DNA from: Centroscyllium fabricii
Taxonomy: Eukaryota
Length of the DNA: 64,000 bases
Direction: 5' to 3'
Assembly (NCBI GenBank): GCA_051313645.2
Contig: JBNRSN020000012.1
Coordinates: forward strand, 150,598,001-150,662,000
Shown: piece by piece, positions 49,095 through 64,000 of the stretch
Layout: every line of letters begins with the position of its first letter
Numbering within the stretch: position 1 is the first letter of the stretch
Program-made: the position numbers and the translations under genes
Notes under the pieces: model-generated
Database searches by the model: none
Seen by the model: only the letters and a program-made list of their open reading frames with translations
Told to the model about the DNA's origin: nothing

Positions 49095-51813
49095 TGTTGT
49101 GTATGTGATAAGAGTATGCTGGGCAGCTTGTAAACCTATAACAGAGCTGCACTATTTTTGGTATGGTGGAGGGATATTGTAATACCTCCACAGGCCACCT
49201 AGTATAAATAGCGCTGCAGTGCAAGCTGTATTCAGTTTCCCCCTGGACCTTGAAGAGCAAAGACCTTTTGTTCCTGTGACCCTGTGTCCGAGTCTTTATT
49301 GAGTGTCTACCTAACACTGACAACGAGGTGTTAGGACAGAACACAACACTGGTGACGAGGTAATGAACGAATTCACCTGCTACAACACGACAGTGGCATA
49401 GATCCAGCATAAGGTCTGGAGAGTCAGGCGTCAACCATGCAGGACAGCCCATCACAAGACCAGCACAGCAGTAGCGGACACCAGGGATAAGGCTGTCGAG
49501 GATCGCGCTGATTCTCCAGCCACGGGGCAACAAGCGAGTAAAGGTACTGTGAACTCCGTTCAGTTGCCCATAAAGCTCGCACGAAGCTCTGACAAGCTGG
49601 GCTAACAGGAATGACTGAGTGCAAAAAAGCAAACCGGCAGATGCGCTGGGTAAGTGCAACTAGCAGCACTGCACCCGCACGAAAGGCTCCACTGCAATTT
49701 CTGGGCCAATATACATCACTCCATTCGATGCGAGTGAGGAAGATTGTGACACTTATGTAGAAAGAGCAGAAATTTGTTTCCAAATAAATGGGGTGTCTGA
49801 AGACCAAAAGGCTGCGACACTTTTAAATTGTATGGGTGCACACACTTTCGAACTGTTAAGGAACCTTATTAACCCAGACAAGCCGACTGACAGAACATTT
49901 GGCCAGATTATCAAAACTCTAAAGGATCATTCTAAAGGAGTTCAGCACTGCCTGTCATCGCTGAAAGATACCGTTTTTATCAACGCATTCAAAGAAGGGA
50001 TGAGTCAATAGCGGAATACTTAGCTGAACTGCAAAGATTGGCGAGGAATTATCAGTTGAGGGAAGGCTTAACAGACGCCCTGAGAGACAAGTTTGTATGT
50101 GGTATGAGTGACCAATCTACACAAAAACAGTTGTTAACAAAACAACAACTGACCTTGCAGCAAGCTTTCGACATAGCTTCTGTTCGGGAGGCAGCAGCAA
50201 GAGGAGCTGCCGAAATTACACAGCACATACCGAGCTATGATACACACGCAGCCGTGCTCCAATCTAACAGGTGCTATCGATGTGGCAGAACAAATCACGC
50301 CCAAAATGACTGTTGGTTCCGTGAGAAGATATGCTGGCAATGTGGCAAGTTAGGACATACCGCAAAAGTTTGTCGATCACCCAAAACCAACGGAAGAGGT
50401 AGCCCGAAGATGAGCCCAAAGACTTACAGGAAAATCAATAGATTGGGCTACAGTAGTTCCGACGAGGCACCAGCACATGCTCAAATGGATTATATGGGCC
50501 TGGGATGCCTAGAAGTCGACAATGCTCGAAAACAAATGGATCACCACATAGTACAGCTCAATGTCAATATAGCTGGTACGATGCTCAATATGGAATTGGA
50601 TACAGGCTCAGCCTTATCAGTAATCAATGCCAACGATTATGAAAGATATTTCAACCACATACCGCTGCAGGACACCACAATGATTTTGAAAATGTATACG
50701 GGACAACACGTATATCCAAAGGGATATATAACAGTTACCATCAACTATAACGGTAGGACGATACCGAGATTACCTCTATACGTAATACACAATGGTGGAA
50801 CTCCATTACTGGGCCGACAATGGCTACGAAAAATCACTATTGACTGGGACTCATTAAATTACACAAGTGTTGATGCTGAAGATGAATTATGCAGACCAGA
50901 CATGCGAGCTCACAAACAGGAAGAAAAGAGATTTGCGGAAATAGAAGGAGCTCTATGTGAGTGTGTGGACAAAGTTGACCAACAGAGAGATGCCATGCAA
51001 AGCCTAATTGATGGATTGCGCTCAGACATACAATGCCTAGTTGAAGGATTGCAGTCAGAAATTGCAACTCTGAAAGTCGATTTTAGAAAACACCCAGAGC
51101 TATGGACAGACAAAGCAAAGAATGAAGGTGCTGAGCTCAAACAACAACTTCAGAAACTGCAAAGTCAGCTTAACAATTGGTCACAACAAGAGAATGAGGC
51201 ACTGCAGCAGAACCTGCCAGCCTTGGCACAATTGCCATCATCATCACCACCAACTAACTACGAGGAGAAGGAAGTGGTGTACCACAAAGAGGCGTCTAAT
51301 AAATCTCAGCCGAACATGGAAAGAACCCTCGAGGTTGTGCACAATTTTGCAGGACAGAAACACCATCGCAAGGGCAAGACTAAAGCTGGAAGAAATCATT
51401 AAAAAATTTGAGGACAATTATACATACTGCCGTTGTTAAAATGTTAAGAACAATGCCGTATAATGTCAAATTAATAATGTTGTAAAGTGTTGAACTGTTA
51501 GTTAATGATGCTACTTCATCTATCAAAAAGGGGTGATATGTTATTTAAAAGGGGAGGAATGTTGTGTATGTGATAAGAGTATGATGGGCAGCCTGTGAGC
51601 ATATAACAGAGCTGCACTATTTCTTGTATGGTGGAGGAATATTGTAATACCTCCACAGGCCACCTAGTATAAATAGCGCTGCACTGCAAGCTGTATTCAG
51701 TTTCCCCCTGGACCTTGAAGAGTAAAGACCTTTTGTTCCTGTGACCCTGTGTCCGAGTCTTTATTGAGTGTCTACCTAACACTGACAACAAGGTGTTAGG
51801 ACAGAACACAACA
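49095..51813 (+). mobile_element. non-autonomous Mag-like LTR element (Gag-PR-coiled coil, no RT/RH/IN)
   Basis: 254-bp LTRs 49095-49348 and 51560-51813 (about 11 differences); TSD GCTAC; PBS TGGTGACGAGG; PPT AAAAGGGGAGGAA. Confidence 0.93.
49611..51402 (+). pseudogene. Gag (two CCHC knuckles), aspartic protease and coiled-coil tail; 50038-51402 open
   Basis: CYRCGRTNH..C and CWQCGKLGH..C; MELDTGSALS; LLGRQWL; then heptad-rich tail ending KHHRKGKTKAGRNH; frameshifts in 5' gag. Confidence 0.88.
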
Positions 51814-53430: not shown

Positions 53431-54215
53431 GTATCAACTTGCTGTCAGAACACCAGTGTTGAAGAGATCTCAAGGGAACAATCGGGGAGCCTCAAGAAGG
53501 GGTCCATGTGTTACATGGCGCAACTTCTACAATGAAAACATAGTTTCATGATTCAAAAGTATTTAACTTGGTTGATTTTTCTATTAGATTACATTCCTTA
53601 GAATAAAAATATATGATTGCCAAATTATTTGGTTGAGTTACATCTTGAATAATATTAGTTATGCATTGGCACCAGTGCAACATCCTGTAAAGAGTCAACA
53701 CTACCTACAGGCCAGTCATACAGTACATTTGGTGTCAAATTACTGTGAACACCATATCAAATTGGCAGAGACTATGCAGTGTAATGGCAGCGGTCCCAGC
53801 CCAATAGAAGTGGTGAGAGGTCACCAGGTGCAGTATAAATCCAATCAGTGTAAAGCAAACTTTAAAATGTTCCTAGATATTCTGAATAAACCTCATTTAA
53901 GAACTTTAGAATGTCAGCAAAGAGCCCATTCCCTTTCAACTCTTCAGTAATATTAAAAACCCAACTGAGCTTTGGATTCTGGAACATTAAGGTCATCCCT
54001 AATGGGCAACTGAAGTTGTGAAAGATGCTATATAAATGTAAGTTCTTTCTTTTTAAACATTTCTAGAAGTGAACTAAAATGGCAAGAACTTCTATCCCAC
54101 ATGTCCACCTCTGTCGACTGGGTAATATTTCTTCCTGTAAGAGGAGGTAATTTAACAGATTAACACTGTCACTAACATTAAGTCAAAAAACAGCTGTCTT
54201 CCATGAGTTTACTTA

Positions 54216-54521
54216 GGGGCCCTTCACAATTTTCAACATTTTCACAAGTGTACAAAGAGTACTCTTTTTTGCTACCCCCTCCCACCCCCCTGGAAGTGTA
54301 CACCAAAAATGTTGATTTTTTCCAACATGGAATTTAAAAGCGGCCGGAGCAGCATTACGATGTTGTATTTTGCCGCTGGTGGCGCTTATTATTTTCGAAT
54401 GACGGCGGAATTTCAATCGACATTTTTAATAACGAAAAAAGCGTACGGACAAGTCGGACCCCCTCCCCCCCAGCGTACGGTTTGTACGCTCGTGAAAATG
54501 TTGAAAATTGTGAAGGGCCCC
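54216..54521. mobile_element. Tourist-like PIF/Harbinger MITE
   Basis: Perfect 30-bp TIR GGGGCCCTTCACAATTTTCAACATTTTCAC; TSD TTA. Confidence 0.92.
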
Positions 54522-55402
54522 TTAGATATAAAAAATAAACTTGTAAATGTCTGCATAAGCCCTGAGATAGAGGCTACGTTGCATAACCGAGGCAATGTAG
54601 AAAGTGCTTTACTCTGCATCTAGCTCATGCTGTACCTGGTCTGGGAATGCTCAATGTGGGAAAGTATTGCATCGTATGGGAGTATACCCCAGAAAAAAAA
54701 AACCTTTACAAGTGATAAAACACACTGCAAGTTGAGTAGCGTGCAATTTCCCTGGCAGTCTTCGAGCAGAGTTGTTGGAATAGACTGTCCCCAGCAAGTG
54801 AACCTGCCCAAACATCCCCCCCATTCAGCCAATAATAATCTTTCAAGCTCTTGGCTCTGTAGTCATTCTTCTGGCTGGTGTCTGTGGAAACTTTAATGCT
54901 TACAGCACATATTCTGGATTCAGTGCCATGGTTATATTAGGATAAATATGAAGCCGAGGTATATGAAATATGAGGGGGCTTTACACATCACGTTGGGAAG
55001 TGTTTGGGAGCTGTTACATCATTGATCTTCATTCTCAGAGTTTGCTCACCCAACAGTTTTATGTAGCTGAATATTGTGTTTGGATAGCTAAAGGTCAACT
55101 ATACAAGAGGGCGAGTCTCCAGCACCAGAAAACTGAGGGAGGACTTGAGATATAAAAGATTCTGGTAAAGGACACAAGAGTTAGCAAGTACCCATACCCT
55201 GAGCAATTCCCTGTTTGAAAGCAAGAAACTCAACTCATTTTCTTCATGCCAACGATTTGAAGAAGAATGTGAAGCCACTTTTACTTGGAATTTTTTCTGA
55301 AAAATGTTGTAGTGAGTAAAAGGCAAAGGCCCTACATTAGTTTAAAACAACCCATATGTTGTGCATCTTTCTCATCCCTTTACTCTTAGCCTGCAATCTG
55401 CT

Positions 55403-55724: not shown

Positions 55725-56210
55725 TGGTTATGGGTGACACTGGCAAGACATTATTTATTGCTCATCGCCAGTTGCCCTCAGAGCATTAAAAGTCAACGGG
55801 GTCATTTTGACTTTGTACGATAGTGTAAAACGGACGGTGGCGAATTAGAACCCTTTTTACATCTCTCCCCATTTTTATTTCCATTGACTTCAAAATCGGG
55901 AGCAATTTAAAACAGGTTGCTGATTCATTATTGTCTGTTTTACACTATCATACAAAGTCAAAATTACCCCCAACCACGTATTGTGGAACTTCAGTCATAT
56001 GTAGGCCATACCAAGTAGAAGTGGTAGGTTTCCTTCAGTGAACCAATTGCATTGTTACAACCATCCAGCACTTTACATGATCATTTTTCTGGTGCCAGCC
56101 ACAAATTACCACATTTATTGACGTTAATTTCACAAATTGCTGTGGTGAGATTTGAACTCACAATCTCTGGGTTGATCCTTTAGTCCTATAATCACTAGGC
56201 TGCCATGCCC
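55725..56210 (-). mobile_element. degenerate tRNA-headed SINE sharing its tail with the LINE at 44050
   Basis: GGCAAG..ATTTATTGCTCATC matches 44073-44098; A/B-box-like head near 56150-56210. Confidence 0.55.
55798..55971. mobile_element. palindromic MITE nested in the SINE
   Basis: About 33-bp TIR GGGGT.ATTTTGACTTTGTA.GATAGTGTAAAAC; 3-bp TSD AAC. Confidence 0.8.
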
Positions 56211-56569: not shown

Positions 56570-57206
56570 ATACTCAACTAATCAGACGTAAGTACAAGGG
56601 ACAGCTAAAGAAAGCGAAGGCTGCTATTAGATCAGCTTAAAAGATAATGGAAAAGAGGATTGTAGACAAGTATGGAAGTATTGGAAAAGGCTTTTCCAGT
56701 TATGTGAAAAGACAGAGAACTCTCAAAGACTGTTGGGCCATTGAAGAACACTCAAGGACAGGTTACGAAGGACTCACTGGATATGGCGTAAATATTAAAT
56801 GAGTACTTTGCATCAATTTTCACTCTTGAAGACAATGCTCAACTGTTAGAATTTAATGATGATGGTAATAATAAAACTAGTAATATTAACATAGATGAAC
56901 ATATTCTTTTAGATAGAATTAAGAACCTGAAAATAGATTGACCAGCCAGGCCAGATGATGTCCACCTGATGATCCTCAGGGAGATGGAACATGTGCTGTG
57001 TGAGCCCCTTGCCTGTATTTTACATAGCTCACTGCACTCTGGGATGGTTCTAGTACACTGGAAAGAGGCTAATGTAGTCCCCATCTTTAAAGAAGGAGAC
57101 AAGACAAACTCGGGTAACTATAGGCCCATTTGTTTGACATCAGCAATAGGAAAGATGCTTGAGGTAATCATCAGGGATGCAATGTATTATTACTTGAATA
57201 GAGAGG
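56570..57206 (+). pseudogene. old CR1 ORF2 fragment
   Basis: WKEANVVPIFKEGDK..NYRPICLTS. Confidence 0.8.
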
Positions 57207-58465
57207 GACACCAAAGGGAATTCCTCCAACTGACCCATGAGGGTCCAGGAGCAGGGCATCCCGGGCCTGAGGCCACCTGGCAACGGGTGCAACAGGCAGG
57301 ATGGTGGCCAGGACTGAGGGGACAAGTTCTGTGTCGGTTGTCTGGTGTGTGCTGCCAATAGCCCTGACCCCCAGAAAAGACAGGTATCTTTGGGACACAT
57401 CAGGAATATAGAAGGATCATGGCAGTCAATGCAAATCGATTACATCGGGCCCCTATCCACCGTCCAGGGAGGCTACAAGTGCTGCCTGGTCCTGGTGGTC
57501 GTGTTTTCAAAATGGGTGGAAGCTTTTCCCTACCAAACAGCTACCGCATTGGGTACAGCTAAGATCCTGGTCAGGGAAGTGTTCTCACGATGGGGACTAT
57601 CGCAGTATGTGGAGTCTGACCAAGGGAGTCATTTTACCGGGCAGGTCATGCAAGAGACCCTCATGGGCCCGGCATTGAAGGGAAATGGCACGTAGCCTAC
57701 AACCCACAGTCATCGGGTCCTGTGGAGCGTTTAAACCGCACCATCAAAGAAAGGCTGCGCAATGAGACAGGAGACTCACCCAAGAAGTGGGTAGAAGTCT
57801 TCCCGTTGGTCCTAATGGGGATCCGAGCCAACCAGTCAAAAAGCACGGGGTATTCCCCATACGAGCTCATGACTGGTAGGGTTATGCGGACTCCCACCCA
57901 TGTGCTAGCCCCGGTGCTCATGGAAGGTCAGCTCAGAGAGGTGAACCGGGACAGCTTCATCAGGAATCTGTTTGAACACCTTAAAAAGATTCACTGGTAG
58001 GCTGCTAGCAACATGGGAAAACAGCATCGGAGTAACCAACTGCTGCTAGATTCCCACAGGCACCATGAGTGGGAGACAGGGGATCAGGTCATGGTGAGGA
58101 ACTTTGCCCGGTTAGGGAGTTTTGAACCATTGTACATGGGGCCGTACAGCATTGTAGACAAGGCCAGCCCCATGGTATATGCCATAGAGATGCCCCGCCA
58201 CACAAAGTGGTTCCACATTAACCAGTGTAAACTGTTTAAAACCAAGAATGGAGAACGGCCAGCAAGGGTGAACCGCCCAAAAGATAGAGATCCTCAGCCA
58301 GCAGCTGTGGCAGACTCACAGACCGCACCGGAGGGGGCAGTGGTTTGTGTCACTGGAGAGGCCAACCCATCAATTATGTGGGACTCGGACACACCCCCAG
58401 TAGCCGGAGCCTTAAGAAGGTCTCTTTGCATACCACAGCCTGAACTACCGTGGTCACCAGTGTAG
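57207..58465 (+). pseudogene. pol: integrase of a retrovirus-like element (5' part of the element missing)
   Basis: HEGPGAGH..C..C; WQSMQIDYIGPL; FSKWVEAFP; SDQGSHFTG; NPQSSGPVERLNRTIK; GPY module; frameshifts. Confidence 0.9.
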
Positions 58466-59002
58466 CAGTTTAAACGGTCCAGCCCCAGAGGGGCCGCAAC
58501 CCGTAAAAGAATGGCCAAGGTCAGGGATCAGTCCAAGGTCAGGGATCTCCAGCCTGCAGCCTCAAAGGGTGAGGGACTTACAGGTGAGGTAGCGTTAGTC
58601 AAAGAAAGCAAGGGGGACCCCAGCCTGCAGCCTCAGGCTGTGCGGAACACACAGGACAGGATAGGGACTCGGCAGCCACACAGGAGGGGGTAGGGTGCTG
58701 CAGTACAGGAGGGCATACTCCCCCGACCAACTGGGATTCAGTGAAACTCCCAATCCTTTAAGAAGAAGTCTCCGGGTCCGGTGGCACAGGCCACCTTACG
58801 TCCAACTGTACAAGCTGCCCAGAGGACACAAAAGACAGAAGCCAAACAGGAATTAGCTTGGCCATCAGTTTTCTTAATTTTAAGTATGTTTTACAGTTTT
58901 TGACAGTTTTAGGTTTACTATTGTTTAATTAGTTATGATAAGTTTTAAGTTTTCGAAACTCAGTAACTGTGTCAAGCCAGAGAACCTTCTCGGGACATGG
59001 CT

Positions 59003-59025
59003 ATCTGTTTTATGTATCCCTACAG
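59003..59025 (+). promoter_or_regulatory. putative env splice acceptor
   Basis: TCTGTTTTATGTATCCCTACAG ends just upstream of the signal-peptide ATG at 59039. Confidence 0.5.
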
Positions 59026-60146
59026 AGAGGAAATCGGCATGAGAAGGGTTCTGCTCCTGCTCACCCTGGTAGGGATGAGCATCGGTGAACGAGCTGAAGT
59101 GGAGAACTCCCACATCTTTGGGTGCTCGGGAGAGAGAGCACCAATCGTTACCGCAGGGGGTGGCGAACGGGGTGTGGAGGGGCTCACTGTTTACTTCCAC
59201 GAGGGAAGGTGGCCAGGGTGGCTGGGGTCCAACTCTACAAAATACTCCAGCCAGACCGGGTTCAGATACAGGGAGGCCTCCATCCCGTGCTCCAGGGTAC
59301 AGATCGCGGCCACATGGATCAGTGTCACTGAGGGGAAACGTGTGTGCCTCACATGTAAAGGACAGATTCTCCTGGATAGGTGGTGGCTAAGGAAACTGAG
59401 CAAGGACATAGGGGACCGTACAGTCAACTGGGAACGTTTGGGGAACAATACCCATCGGACTATCACAGGGACCCGAGGGGGAGTGAGTGTGTGCTGGGAC
59501 AAGTGGTGGGAGCTGGATCAGGGGATTTACATTTGTATGTGGGGGTCAGAGAAAGCCTGCCACACAGGCGTATCCATCATCTTCCACAGTCAATGGCAAG
59601 ATAACGGGAATGGGATGGAGTGGGATTCTAGCTTACATGCGTGTGCGGTCCCATACTCCCCGATCCCAGTCAACGCCACCGAACTTGTAACCCGCCCCCG
59701 AATGCCCCTGCCCACGACCACGACATCACGGCCCATAGTAGAGAGGTGTCCTACCACTACCAAGGGACCAGGGAATGGGCTAGTATTAGTGCCGACCAAA
59801 AAGGTATTATACCAGGGGTACACTATGCAGTAGCTTCAGTGATCCTAAACCTTACCGAGGTACACTTACCTGAATGGTGCCCAAAGGAGACAGAACAGCT
59901 GTACCAAGCCCTGCTGAAGGAAATGGTTAGGTAATTTTATGAATTTGACTTTGCCAATGTAAACAAAGCAAAACTGTACAGTTTACATCCTGAATATAAT
60001 ATGGGCACGGAGAGCCAAAGAAGGGGAACCTGGAACGATATTTTCACTGCCTATAATACAGGATTCTCGGTAATAAATAGCCTGGATGACATAGAACTGC
60101 AAACACAGATAAATGGTTTAAAAACCCAATTAAGATAAATCCTAAC

Positions 60147-61577
60147 TGAAAGGATTACAACATTTCGTGTGTGTTCCCCCTGTAGAAGATTGGCGGTATT
60201 ATGTTGTGAAGATTAATGTAAAGACCCTGGCGGGACTGTTTTAGAAGCCCAGGGCAGAAATGGGCACATAAAATGTTCAAAAAATGGCCGATCAGTAAAA
60301 CGCTGCTTTTCTTAAAGTGAAAAGACAATCTCCCAGCCGGTGTCTGTGTGAATTATGCAAAGATCTGCCGAGGTGGCTTGAAAACCAAGCCTGTCTTTCA
60401 TATGCAGAAAGGACAATGAGGTCCAGTAAAAACCTTTCCAGGTGGGAGAAGCAATTTTTACATATGGATACAGCCGGAGCCTCTGAGTCTCGAACAAGCC
60501 TCAAAAATTGTACTGTAACAATGAAACGGCAGTTGGAAGCCAATCACAGCTAGTAGGTGTTAATCAAATAATGAGGTAAAGTCATTGAAATTCGAACAAC
60601 ACAATGGGAGGTGTTAATGGCCATTCAGGAAAACGATCACCGGCCATCAAAGTGGATGGACCATCATCGAAACCTTTTGTCTGAGATTTTACACCCAAAC
60701 CAGTTCAAAGGTGCAGAAAGAGTATAATTGGGATGTCCAGCCTCTCTCTCACGCTCTCTGTTTCCTATTCTGCTCTCTGCCTGAGCTCTGGACCTGGCTG
60801 TGTGAGAAGGAAGACCTTTTACTAGAAGATTACTTTGACAACCCGCAGCCAGGAAAACCCAGGCCAGGCATAAGCAATATTCAACTTTCTGCAGGTGAGC
60901 ATAATTTTTCTGACTGTCGCAGACATCTTAGGCTAGGCTAGGTTTAAGGGAAGGGGGTTAAGGAGATTGCTAAAATTGTCATTTTAGAGATTTTCCCTCG
61001 ATATGTTCGATTCCTCTCCCCCCACCCCCCGTTAATTGCACAGCTTTAAGTTTGTCTTATGTATGTAGTCGTTTTAACCTGTAATTTTATTAGATCTGTA
61101 ATAAAACCATTTGTTTTCTTGTAACGAAACCACGACTCTGCCTGCTGTTTGTCTTATCACTGCTGGATAAGTCCCAGGACTAGAACTGAGTAAAGGGGAG
61201 CGATTCAAAACGTACTGTCTCCCAAGTGTCTATTTAAAGAGTATTCTCCACCCAAATTCTGGAGTTAGAACCAGATAGGGGCATTAGGGCGCTTCAAACC
61301 CGCCAAACTAGGGACCAGCAGACTAGGGAAAAGGGAGAGGACTCCAGGCGCACGTGGGCTCGAGAATACCCCCACAGGTTAGGTATAAACTGTGTGGGTT
61401 GCCACCGTATTGAGTTCTCCTCTATAAGCTGTTGTTTCCCTATCTCCTTAGAGGGTGTTTAGTGACACCCGACCTGCAGGTCATAACATAAGCTGTAAGG
61501 GTATAAAGGAGACCAAGGCCCAATACACCAACAGGCACTAGAGACCCCTGCAATTGGGCAGACCAAAAACCCCTACA
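60147..61577 (+). mobile_element. long solo LTR (ERV-like)
   Basis: TGAAAGG...CCTACA; 4-bp TSD TAAC; AATAAA near 61100; removal restores the env frame (ILT|EENRV). Confidence 0.8.
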
Positions 61578-62170
61578 TAACAGAGGAGAATAGAGTGGCA
61601 GGCTCAGAGTTACACGAGGACCAAGCTATGTCAGTCCATTTAAAGGAAATTATTGCTGAGCTGGAGACACGCCAAATCAGTAAATGCATTGTTACGGGTG
61701 GACAGGAATGCTTCAGATCAGGCTGTACAGAATGAGGTGTGTGTGCTATACAGGACATGGTTGCTAGGTGAGGGATGTAGCAAACTGGAGGATTTAAAAC
61801 AAGGTTTAGTCCCCTCCTGAATTAGCAACAAGCACCCCGCAGCCCTCCACCTGTTTAGGAATTCGCTGAGCCCGTGTCAGCTTCATCTAGCCTCTGAAGC
61901 CTACCCTGTCCCAGTGGATTGTGGACGTTCCAATCACATTATTATGGGGATAGTAGTGAGGATGCCGGTCATGGGTGGGACAGCCCAACCCGCACCGGTA
62001 TACAGGGTGGAGAACATTGGGATCATTCAAGGGGGTGCACACATCCGTTTCGCAGCGGTCCCACCTTATGTCATAAAATGGGAGCACGCTATAACAGGTA
62101 CAGACCGCTCCGGAGCCGGGGTGCCCACATAATACTGTGTCCCCAGCACTTGAATGCCTATTCCAGACCA

Positions 62171-62335
62171 TTGTAAGAAGTCACACAACACCAGGTTATA
62201 GTCCAACAGTTTTATTTGAAATCACAAGCTTTCGGAGTAGCTTGTGATTTCAAATAAAACTGTTGGACAATAACCTGGTGGTGTGTGACTTCTTACAATT
62301 GTCCACCCCAGTCCAACACCGGCACCTCCACATCA
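62171..62335 (+). mobile_element. Penelope-like hairpin insertion
   Basis: 60-bp inverted arms 62171-62230 and 62239-62298 plus a 37-nt tail; 12-bp TSD TATTCCAGACCA. Confidence 0.75.
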
Positions 62336-62456
62336 TATTCCAGACCACAGTGCGGGTTTAAAGCTGCTGGCTCACAACCTATTAACTGTACCATGGAGGT
62401 AATGGCACAAGGACATGTTCCCCCACAGGTAGCATTCATAGCGGGTGGGACATATT

Positions 62457-62654
62457 AGGCCAGAAATCCCGCTGAGCGCAGGAGGTTTTGGAGCCGGGTG
62501 TTAGTGCACCCGAGCTCCGAATTGCAGGGAGCAGCAGTTTCCAGCTGCTACCTGCAATTCCGAAGGCGGCCAGCGGGGGGTCGAGAGCTGCTGCGAGCTG
62601 GATCGCGTTCGCCTGCGTACCACGAGGTGCGCAGTGCACTTACGATTTTGGCCC
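62457..62654. mobile_element. Harbinger-type MITE or MITE end truncating env
   Basis: AGGCCAGAAATC ... GATTTTGGCCC; the right end overlaps the inverted RT copy. Confidence 0.4.
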
Positions 62655-64000
62655 ATCACGGCCTAATTGAAACCCTGCGATGGGGGCAATGGGCCCACCA
62701 GGTTGAATTGACAACTGGACCAACACCTGCCAGGACTGTCAGCGCGCCAAGGTCCATCAGCATACCAAAGCTCCCTTGCAAGATTTTCCGGTGCCCGAGC
62801 AGCGCTTTGATCATGTCCATGTGGACCTGGTGGGCCCATTGCCCCCATCGCAGGGTTAACAATTAGGCCGTGATGGGCCAATCTCTGAAAAAGAGAGCGC
62901 AGGTGCATTACATGTTGAGATTCGTTAGCACTAGCAACTAAAATGTCATCAAGATATACAAACAAAAAGGCCAAGTCCCGAAGGACAGAGTCCAGCAACC
63001 GTTGGAAAACCTGTGCCGCATTCTTTAACCCGAAAGGCATGCGCAGGAATTCAAAAAGTCCGAATGGCATAATAACGGATGTTTTTTGGATGTCATCTGG
63101 ATGGACCGGGACCTGGTGATACCCTCGCACGAGGTCGACTTTCGAAAAAATGGTAGTGCCCACTAAATGGGCCGCAAAGTCCTGAATATGTGGTACCGGG
63201 TATCTGTCTGGCGTGGTGGCGTCGTTAAGGCACATGGTCGCCAACCGCCTCCTGGCTTGGGGACGATGTGGAGTGGGGACAACCACGGGCTGTTGGAAGG
63301 TCGAATGATCCCTAACTTCTCCATGGCTGAGAATTCCTGCTTGACCACCACCATCTTCGTAGGGTCGAGGCGTCTGGCTCGAGCGAAGACCGGTGGACCA
63401 GTAGTAGCGATATGATCTTGGACGCCGTGTTTGGCTGACCCATCGGAGAATGTTGGCTGCATGATGGCCGGGAACTAGGCCAGCAGGTGTGCGTACTTGT
63501 CGCCCGGAGGAGGAGAGCAGGAGCTTATGAGGGGTTGGCCATCACTTCGCTGGCAGGGGAACGATGCGAAAGTAGATGCATCCATCAGACATCTGCCCCG
63601 GATGTCCATGAGCAGGCCGTGGGCACACAGGAAATCCTCACCCAGCAATGGATGTGCTATATTGGCCGTGACAAAATGCCAGGCAAACCGTTGGTCACCC
63701 AGTCGGATTTCCGCTTGCCGCTTACCGAATGTGGCTATTGCTACGCCATTCACTGCCACGAGGAGTGGGCCGCTGCGGCCGGACTGTTGATTGGAGTGCG
63801 TGGCTGGTAAGATGCTGAGCTGGGCCCCTGTGTCGCAGAGGAATTGTTGCCCGGATAGAGAGTCTGTAATATACAGCAACTGACCTGCTGTGCCCATGGC
63901 GTTAGCAGCGGCTGGTCCTTGGAGGTGCAGCTGGCTCGGAGAATTGGGCTTGGTTTGGGCCACCTTGCCGTCGAAGGAGCAAGGTGGTCGGCAGCGGTGG
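62649..64000 (-). pseudogene. gag-pol: rearranged CsRn1-like gag-pol fragment (runs off the window)
   Basis: HRCRPPCSF CHCC end; FLCDTGAQ protease; RT with YLDD; stop at 63475; inverted integrase piece at 62706-62856. Confidence 0.88.

Follow-up and report, generated by a model that had tools for sequence, protein, structure and literature searches.

What kind of retrovirus left the broken envelope gene that lies near the 3' end of a 64,000-nucleotide stretch of Centroscyllium fabricii DNA (contig JBNRSN020000012.1, positions 150,598,001 to 150,662,000; G000:C224:150598001-150662000 in our search of this 7.2 Gb genome), and what does that gene say about the envelopes of retroviruses more generally? 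We call the whole stretch the window. An original prediction had pieced together from it a retroviral envelope protein (Env) with a fusion ectodomain resembling viral F proteins, and had assigned it to a "loki-like or related" element. We are confident in concluding that the window carries a defunct copy, interrupted several times, of a large family of endogenous retroviruses (ERVs), in which a canonical, likely class III-like polymerase is combined with a compact Env of predicted F type (class Ib). Taken by itself, the window copy is an unremarkable dead fragment, and it is the family that gives it interest.

The env pieces of the window copy span 59039-62457, downstream of an integrase (IN) remnant. 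By tblastn they form six collinear matches, with 58-80% identity, to amino acids (aa) 2-605 of P0001, the unbroken 782-aa Env of genomic copy L021 (aa 2-260, 260-372, 369-398, 399-548, 550-569 and 559-605; E 7e-136 to 8e-15). The IN remnant carries the Pfam domains rve (E 1.6e-9) and H2C2 (E 2e-9), is 64-71% identical in amino acids to the Pol of copy L027 and groups with the IN of that copy (SH-aLRT 100) in a tree built without loki IN or CGIN1. The proposed single env polypeptide downstream of an integrase therefore stands, as does the account of its damage: there are three frameshifts (near 59815-59818, where a one-nucleotide loss near 59817 had been suggested, near 61665-61666 and near 62111-62114) and three stops (59932-59934, 60136-60138 and 61818-61820). 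The furin-type site, near 60013-60024, is degenerate, and none of five window env pieces has a Pfam match; the open frame containing the first piece is 58967-59833. Similarity to the ERV begins at 57208-57215. Gag, protease (PR), reverse transcriptase (RT) and the 5' long terminal repeat (LTR) are absent from this copy, with no gag or RT match of the family in the window or in the 20 kb upstream.

Both insertions that had been proposed within env are present, with the expected target-site duplications (TSDs; Table 1). The first, a solo LTR of 1431 bp with TG...CA ends, is missing from the close relatives L042 and L054, which are continuous across the site, and is dispersed as a repeat elsewhere in the genome, its ends unchanged (of 2190 candidates, the 40 scored gave 47 matches). 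The second includes a 65-nt hairpin at 62166-62303, and its repeat recurs at unrelated positions in L054 and L056 (89-96%). The solo LTR differs from both LTR types tested, those of the window's own subfamily and of the young subfamily. Because its type flanks gag-pol-env of the same family in L069/L070 (env 71% to P0001), as it also does in L068, one subfamily must have inserted into the env of another; 4-bp duplications are found at five of seven other copies of this element that were checked. The window copy would then come from an earlier wave, the solo LTR being what a sister subfamily left behind when it later inserted into that env. Family members are often nested in or adjacent to each other, since older-type env copies lie directly beside young proviruses at L058:2546-4230 and L024:5119-6227. 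A further member, L072 (G000:C224:150682001-150692000, minus strand), lies about 20-30 kb past the window; it has 79% Pol identity and a trace of env.

The 3' end of the window env had been taken for a simple truncation at 62457, and here the original prediction needs correction. The sixth env piece (78-81% nucleotide identity to five fetched copies) runs into a Gypsy-type element, beyond which, 933-1088 bp past the window end (L037), lies a piece encoding Env aa 691-742 and entering the transmembrane (TM) anchor. This piece shows 73% amino-acid identity, and 76-88% nucleotide identity to all seven close copies; we infer that it belongs to the same ERV copy. Because this TM-proximal piece lies only about 0.9 kb past the window, the gene is interrupted rather than truncated. 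Neither the window nor the 50 kb downstream or 20 kb upstream yielded residues 606-690.

The intact relative P0001 allows the protein itself to be described. It has a hydrophobic N-terminus, an R-x-R-R site at residues 326-329, 22 cysteines and one TM segment at 733-751; cysteines are conserved across the family. In agreement with the earlier reading of the window copy, gamma-type signatures are missing from P0001: a motif scan found neither CX6CC nor LQNR, and there is no immunosuppressive domain (ISD). The full R-x-R-R site is kept in all 11 other copies caught by the motif scan. About 240 N-terminal residues precede the F-like part of the Env open reading frame (ORF), and we modeled residues 241-782 with AlphaFold, using an alignment of 32 sequences (pLDDT 71.8, pTM 0.52). 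Among the matches listed, all 37 Foldseek matches in the PDB (best E 8.5e-12, TM-score about 0.4) and all 50 in a VIA structure search (best Z 12.8) were paramyxovirus or pneumovirus F proteins. With postfusion Nipah F, VIA gave Z 12.2 and 5.2 Å over 290 residues; the VIA alignment covers model residues 4-411 or more against F 26-432, which corresponds in this predicted monomer to the F domain I-III topology across the cleavage site. Feature matches in Atlas fell to Gypsy/Baculo_F/Fusion_gly clusters (0.94-0.95). In the viral models of BFVD, lispi-, filo- and baculovirus proteins rank first, ahead of retroviral Envs, among which walleye epidermal hyperplasia virus 1 (E 8e-9), walleye dermal sarcoma virus (4e-6) and feline foamy virus (FFV; 5e-5) were matched; the walleye models are Q9WHI8 and A4GTG3. 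Env residues 241-782 are predicted on the strength of these models to adopt a paramyxovirus-F-type (class Ib) fold. The F-like ectodomain that had been proposed is thus supported by structural comparison, and not by sequence or profile, where no match to F was obtained.

The N-terminal region probably holds an immunoglobulin (Ig)-like domain, to judge from its sequence matches. Sub-threshold Pfam scores to Ig_3 were obtained for the window piece (Table 1), L021 (E 0.015), P0109 (0.0027) and P0044 (0.0085), and 11 of the 16 weak PDB matches of this region are Ig domain proteins; a fold model of the N-terminal domain was unusable (pLDDT 36). By analogy with F-protein biology, furin would cut the precursor into F2-like and F1-like halves, and the cut protein would trimerise, drive the newly exposed N-terminus into the target membrane and fuse the membranes by zipping up its pair of heptad repeats. 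The probable Ig-like domain would act as the receptor-binding module.

We also compared the F-like region with reference retroviral Envs by means of a profile, with scores reported for 35 of the 37 candidate ORFs and for 89 of the 200 shuffles. The highest scores went to equine foamy virus (14.9 bits) and snakehead retrovirus (SnRV; 12.4 bits), and the top nine of the 35 reported ORFs were foamy or SnRV; gamma- and delta-type Envs reached at most 2.3 bits and shuffles at most 2.4, although part of the foamy and SnRV scores may come from coiled-coil or TM composition. Alignment of the family with SnRV Env by hhalign gave a probability of 71.5 (E 3.6e-5); BLASTP of P0001 against SnRV Env, at 20% identity across 427 aa (E 0.81), did not reach significance by itself. 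At the N-terminus, the SnRV Env has a weak V-set match (E 0.08), hhalign of the two N-terminal regions gave a probability of 2, and no shared Ig domain was established by hhalign. We regard the profile and hhalign links to SnRV and foamy Envs as weak signals, not proof. The Envs of the walleye epsilonretroviruses and of SnRV (L038:6131-9535) may both be unrecognised class Ib Envs.

If the Env resembles that of lokiretroviruses, does the polymerase do so too? The RT motif of the family, and of the window's own subfamily (L054), is LPQGFHNSP; the loki RT motif is (C/T)PFGYANSP, and loki rows in the supplement of PMC7947760 read PFGYANSP, which occurs there 31 times. The family shares LDISNGFWSI with the published SnRV row and is 45% identical in RT to SnRV, for which the reference was L038, the sole viral contig recovered by RT alignment and a match to that row. 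The loki reference in our trees was L039, a metagenome contig with the loki motif and a partial RT. In two trees of RT plus tether, loki RT is sister to all canonical retroviruses, the shark family included (100/99), and an approximately unbiased (AU) test rejects a clade of the family with loki RT (p=0.001). A tree with foamy, gamma and delta references recovers a class I clade (92/97), a foamy clade (100/100) and a delta clade (100/100), with the family outside each, in an open basal fork with SnRV and with coelacanth, frog, turtle and ostrich ERVs. Rows dropped before tree building were P0027, six of 33 Pol matches and eight more rows from the tree with foamy, gamma and delta references, in which 27 of 36 reference genomes went unused. 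An IN query in the viral contigs returned no loci. Because its RT falls inside Retroviridae and outside the gamma/epsilon, delta and foamy clades, the polymerase is best described as canonical and likely class III-like, in the grade of SnRV and clade Huo; sisterhood with SnRV itself is not supported.

The family is large. A single window env piece has 4150 candidate loci in the genome; all 150 that were scored are matches, and 11 of these lie inside frames of at least 780 aa. Full-length relatives, which the original prediction had proposed to look for, do exist, and their layout is LTR-gag(CCHC)-PR-RT-tether-RNase H-IN-env-LTR. Pol continues in frame after the gag stop, the primer-binding site begins TGGCGAC and target duplications are 4 bp long; no 3' accessory ORF was seen in family copies. 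Four of eight fetched copies have env frames of 787-790 aa, and none is unbroken across all genes. The paired LTRs of two young copies are 96.7% and 98.8% identical, those of four older copies 88-93%. Divergences of 1.2% and 10% would correspond to about 3 and 23 My at a rate of 2.2e-9, and to ten times more at the 2.2e-10 assumed in PMC4422223, so that absolute ages are not to be trusted.

In 28 pairwise comparisons of env, the ratio of nonsynonymous to synonymous change (dN/dS) was 0.12-0.30 for pairs of young-subfamily copies and 0.05-0.15 for pairs from different subfamilies, with values of 0.38 and 0.68 for two pairs within an older subfamily. The env gene is under purifying selection. 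By reasoning familiar from the ERV literature, both these ratios and the divergence of LTR pairs fit spread by reinfection, and the family would therefore likely have spread in the germ line in this manner, in several waves.

Relatives of this Env are found well beyond one genome. A representative search returned 48 proteins, of which 16 were looked up or named; those with names come from the skate Rhinoraja (79-88% identity), from six sharks (Pristiophorus, Scyliorhinus, Heptranchias, Heterodontus, Chiloscyllium and Mustelus) and, at 17-21%, from three frogs. Every close relative with a name is thus elasmobranch, and an exon of a sawshark host gene matches the genome at 67%, a value with no comparator; on these sequence grounds the host would probably be an elasmobranch. 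Identity among shark and frog family members is 18-31%, and the databases label these proteins "uncharacterized". A second, distant F-like env lineage occurs in the genome behind a class III-type RT (L092, about 50% identical to L027 and to coelacanth Pol).

Several side observations concern these relatives. The young-subfamily Env (L021) is 79-88% identical to Rhinoraja P0002 and P0038, as against about 60-79% to older subfamilies in its own genome, and this closer skate match suggests a skate-like host or cross-species spread. Within the second env lineage, L085 (G000:C933:116220661-116222661, minus strand) is an unbroken 851-aa stop-to-stop frame with 40-45% identity to Chiloscyllium P0046. 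Its setting has decayed, and nothing of the provirus but an IN remnant, along with a Gypsy insert, lies upstream. Of the 16 matches, the remaining 15 are short or broken; L085 is a candidate for an env kept by the host. The shark proteins P0045 (Mustelus), P0049 (Heterodontus) and P0053 (Chiloscyllium) have 44-62% mutual identity and 27-31% identity to P0001, and all 14 matches of this type in the shark genome carry stops; they represent either a third old lineage or a co-opted gene. Four shark gene models (P0003, P0004, P0042 and P0068) join env pieces to host genes (Niban, cadherin, a zinc-finger protein and fbxo15), and these are annotation artefacts or exonised ERV fragments. In the frog Mantella aurantiaca, the P0078 cluster has 16 members, most of them env-like proteins of 677 aa, spread over several large contigs, which suggests that an ERV of this Env type has multiplied there recently.

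A number of points weigh against the combination of a class III-like polymerase with an F-type Env. There is no Pfam Fusion_gly (PF00523) match for P0001 or 23 relatives, the sole Baculo_F match among them being P0068 (E 0.001), and no F protein appeared in PDB sequence or profile searches. Whole-model TM-scores are about 0.4, with high root mean square deviation and the pTM given above; the predicted fusion peptide lies outside the five most hydrophobic windows; and the Ig domain scores are below Pfam thresholds. On the polymerase side, the trees do not join the family to SnRV, one of them groups SnRV with class I, and plain identity over RT plus tether is 35% to the loki fragment as against 34% to SnRV. 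The trees contain one partial loki RT, and loki IN, ERV-L and fish foamy-like references were left out of them. Finally, young copies were selected for long open frames, and dN/dS within the young subfamily is therefore biased. Sequence identity of the family Env to paramyxovirus, pneumovirus, errantivirus and baculovirus F is 7-17%.

Could the element be a different kind of retrovirus, or have moved in a different way? The window copy would be the first lokiretrovirus from cartilaginous fishes if its F-like Env, dual RNase H and R-x-R-R site, all among the loki features listed in PMC7947760, were taken as decisive; the nearest named Pol proteins are annotated "NYNRIN-like", loki IN being close to CGIN1/NYNRIN, and the cysteines of the Loki-Lch Env row are, by eye, spaced alike. 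Dual RNase H is not diagnostic, however, because it is common to all retroviruses, SnRV included, and the RT motif, the nesting of the family within canonical retroviruses in both trees and the AU test largely refute membership, which we consider extremely improbable. In the shark genome the loki RT motif had no exact match, and the best of 150 scored loci reached 33-38% identity; this agrees with the supplement of PMC7947760, in which lokiretroviruses, defined by an RT sister to that of all sampled retroviruses, were scored in none of six chondrichthyan genomes. "Loki-like or related" hence holds for the Env and its predicted fold, and not for lokiretrovirus membership. A fish foamy-like element of clade Tu would explain an F-like Env directly, and both the best PDB match of IN (prototype foamy virus IN, E 3e-33) and the top profile score among reference Envs (equine foamy virus) point that way. 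The RT, however, falls outside four foamy references, in a tree that left out fish foamy-like ones, and its best PDB match is of MLV/XMRV type (E 2e-65 versus 3e-55). Foamy viruses have a gag without a CCHC knuckle and express pol separately; the family has a CCHC gag and in-frame gag-pol, and its Env is about 780 aa as opposed to about 990 aa, with no large insert before the cleavage site. We find this origin very unlikely. The family might also have spread within cells as a retrotransposon with env as a passenger, as could be read from the broken env of most copies (only 11 of 150 scored matches lie in the long frames), from the neighboring L072, which appears to have lost most of env, and from the two high dN/dS values among older copies. 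The low ratios between subfamilies and among young copies argue against it, as does the furin-type site kept in every other copy caught, and we judge such spread unlikely.

A different question is whether the F-like env is native to this lineage. A class III retrovirus could have captured it later from a loki-, errantivirus- or mononegavirus-like donor, in which case it would be uninformative about the ancestral retroviral Env, and we give this history nearly even chances. Env swapping is common among anamniote ERVs (10.1101/2021.11.23.469661), an SnRV-like elephant-shark ERV with a similar Pol carries, by eye, a gamma-type env (PMC4422223 supplement), and the best BFVD matches belong to lispi-, filo- and baculoviruses, above retroviral Envs. 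Late capture sits less well with the depth and diversity of the env family, with the presence of the second env lineage behind a class III-type Pol as well, and with a profile that puts foamy and SnRV Envs above all gamma and delta Envs and shuffles reported. Our own tentative proposal, which may well prove wrong, is that the F-type Env is native to the SnRV-like lineage, SnRV included, and represents, together with the loki, foamy and walleye epsilonretrovirus Envs, the ancestral retroviral envelope. The pairing of Pol and Env favors, and does not prove, an ancestral F-type Env. If the proposal is true, gamma- and beta-type Envs are later replacements, and the shark family is a minimal, recently active example of the ancestral type, with a compact F core and a captured Ig-like receptor-binding domain.

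How does this bear on what has been published? F-like Envs have been described for lokiretroviruses (PMC7947760), foamy viruses (PMC11468914) and invertebrate errantiviruses (10.1101/2023.10.26.564294), SnRV-like ERVs are known in cartilaginous fish (PMC4422223, PMC6001957, PMC4977317), and walleye virus Envs have been noted to lack gamma hallmarks, their fold not being named (PMC9967133). Viro3D (PMC12583693) expects more retroviral cases. Four scenarios for the origin of retroviral Env are listed in PMC7947760, and PMC9040795 prefers separate Env acquisitions by loki and canonical retroviruses. In literature other than subscription papers, Repbase/Dfam and bioRxiv supplements we found no published case from sharks in which a class III ERV has an F-like Env, and the available parts of PMC9040795, PMC13709493, PMC12690878, PMC11521997, PMC10699275 and 10.1101/2024.03.17.585361 do not describe the pairing; earlier mention of F-like Envs in SnRV, epsilon or shark ERVs may exist outside the literature covered. 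A survey of anamniote Envs sought gamma and beta types only (10.1101/2021.11.23.469661), and surveys seeded in this way could therefore not have detected the F-like family. PMC11468914 separates foamy Env, as class Ib and F-like, from the class Ia Env of orthoretroviruses. This division is weakened by a genome in which at least two lineages join an F-like Env to a Pol that is canonical and not foamy, the Env having relatives in sharks, a skate and frogs; the pairing also makes the congruence of Env and RT testable.

The coordinates of the features are collected in Table 1. The RT fragment adjoining the ERV remnant is one that we take, from its motif, to be of long interspersed nuclear element (LINE) type. 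Elsewhere in the window, 254-nt repeats (96%) lying 2465 bp apart surround a gag/protease-like frame (49936-51402) and mark a small LTR element at 49095-51813. Two short elements with terminal inverted repeats, resembling miniature inverted-repeat transposable elements, lie at 54212-54525 and 55798-55970 (arms of 54 and 61 nt). Inside the Gypsy insert, nested perfect inverted repeats of 33 and 22 nt at 62648-62881 indicate a fold-back rearrangement joining RT and IN-like sequence.

Table 1. The ERV copy in the window and the elements that adjoin or interrupt it
Feature	Position	Strand	Evidence
LINE-type (presumed) RT fragment adjoining 5' end of ERV remnant	56942-57207	+	Open frame 56942-57361
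Integrase remnant of ERV: zinc finger, core, SH3-type C-terminus	57208-58390	+	Pfam; frameshifted, stop 57998-58000
Env piece 1: predicted signal peptide, N-terminal domain, F2-like start; ends at frameshift	59039-59818	+	aa 2-260 of P0001, 61%
Probable Ig-like domain inside env piece 1 (weak evidence)	59294-59590	+	Ig_3, E 2.3
Env piece 2: F2-like region, degenerate furin-type site, predicted fusion peptide, start of heptad repeat A	59815-60146	+	aa 260-372 of P0001, 71%
Solo LTR, sister subfamily of same ERV family	60147-61577	+	TSD TAAC at 60143-60146 and 61578-61581
Env pieces 3-5: heptad repeat A, helical core, cysteine-rich beta domains	61578-62170	+	aa 369-569 of P0001, 73-80%
Hairpin-forming short repeat insertion	62159-62347	.	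12-bp TSD at 62159-62170 and 62336-62347
Env piece 6: further cysteine-rich region, ends at foreign DNA	62348-62457	+	aa 559-605 match
Nested Gypsy-type LTR retrotransposon (RT, protease)	62458-64000, continuing about 0.9 kb past window	-	RVT_1, E 1.8e-22; protease, E 0.006

Among known systems, SnRV and the SnRV-like class III ERVs of clade Huo (PMC6001957, PMC4977317) are among the closest, sharing the RT motif blocks, a CCHC gag, and a gag stop followed by in-frame pol. The SnRV Env is likewise non-gamma and a weak profile match, but has 1134 aa compared with about 780 in the shark family, which is moreover endogenous and high-copy. CmiERV lineage I of the elephant shark (PMC4422223) has an SnRV-like Pol with, by eye, the same RT motifs; it differs in its gamma-type env, with ISD and CX6CC by eye, where the env of the shark family is F-like, and it has far fewer copies than the candidates counted for that family. 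Lokiretroviruses (PMC7947760) share with the family an F-like Env with signal peptide, R-x-K/R-R site, heptad repeats and TM segment, and the dual RNase H; the family departs from them in the type and position of its RT, in having no Pfam Fusion_gly match and in its N-terminal extension with a probable Ig domain. Foamy Env (PMC11468914) also has an F-type core, in line with the Foldseek match to the FFV model, but it carries a leader peptide and a receptor-binding domain between its subunits, while the extra domain of the shark family is N-terminal, as in coronavirus spike. The F proteins of paramyxo- and pneumoviruses, errantiviruses and baculoviruses (PMC12583693; 10.1101/2023.10.26.564294) have the same predicted fold; unlike them, the shark Env is encoded by a vertebrate retrovirus and has an N-terminal domain of its own.

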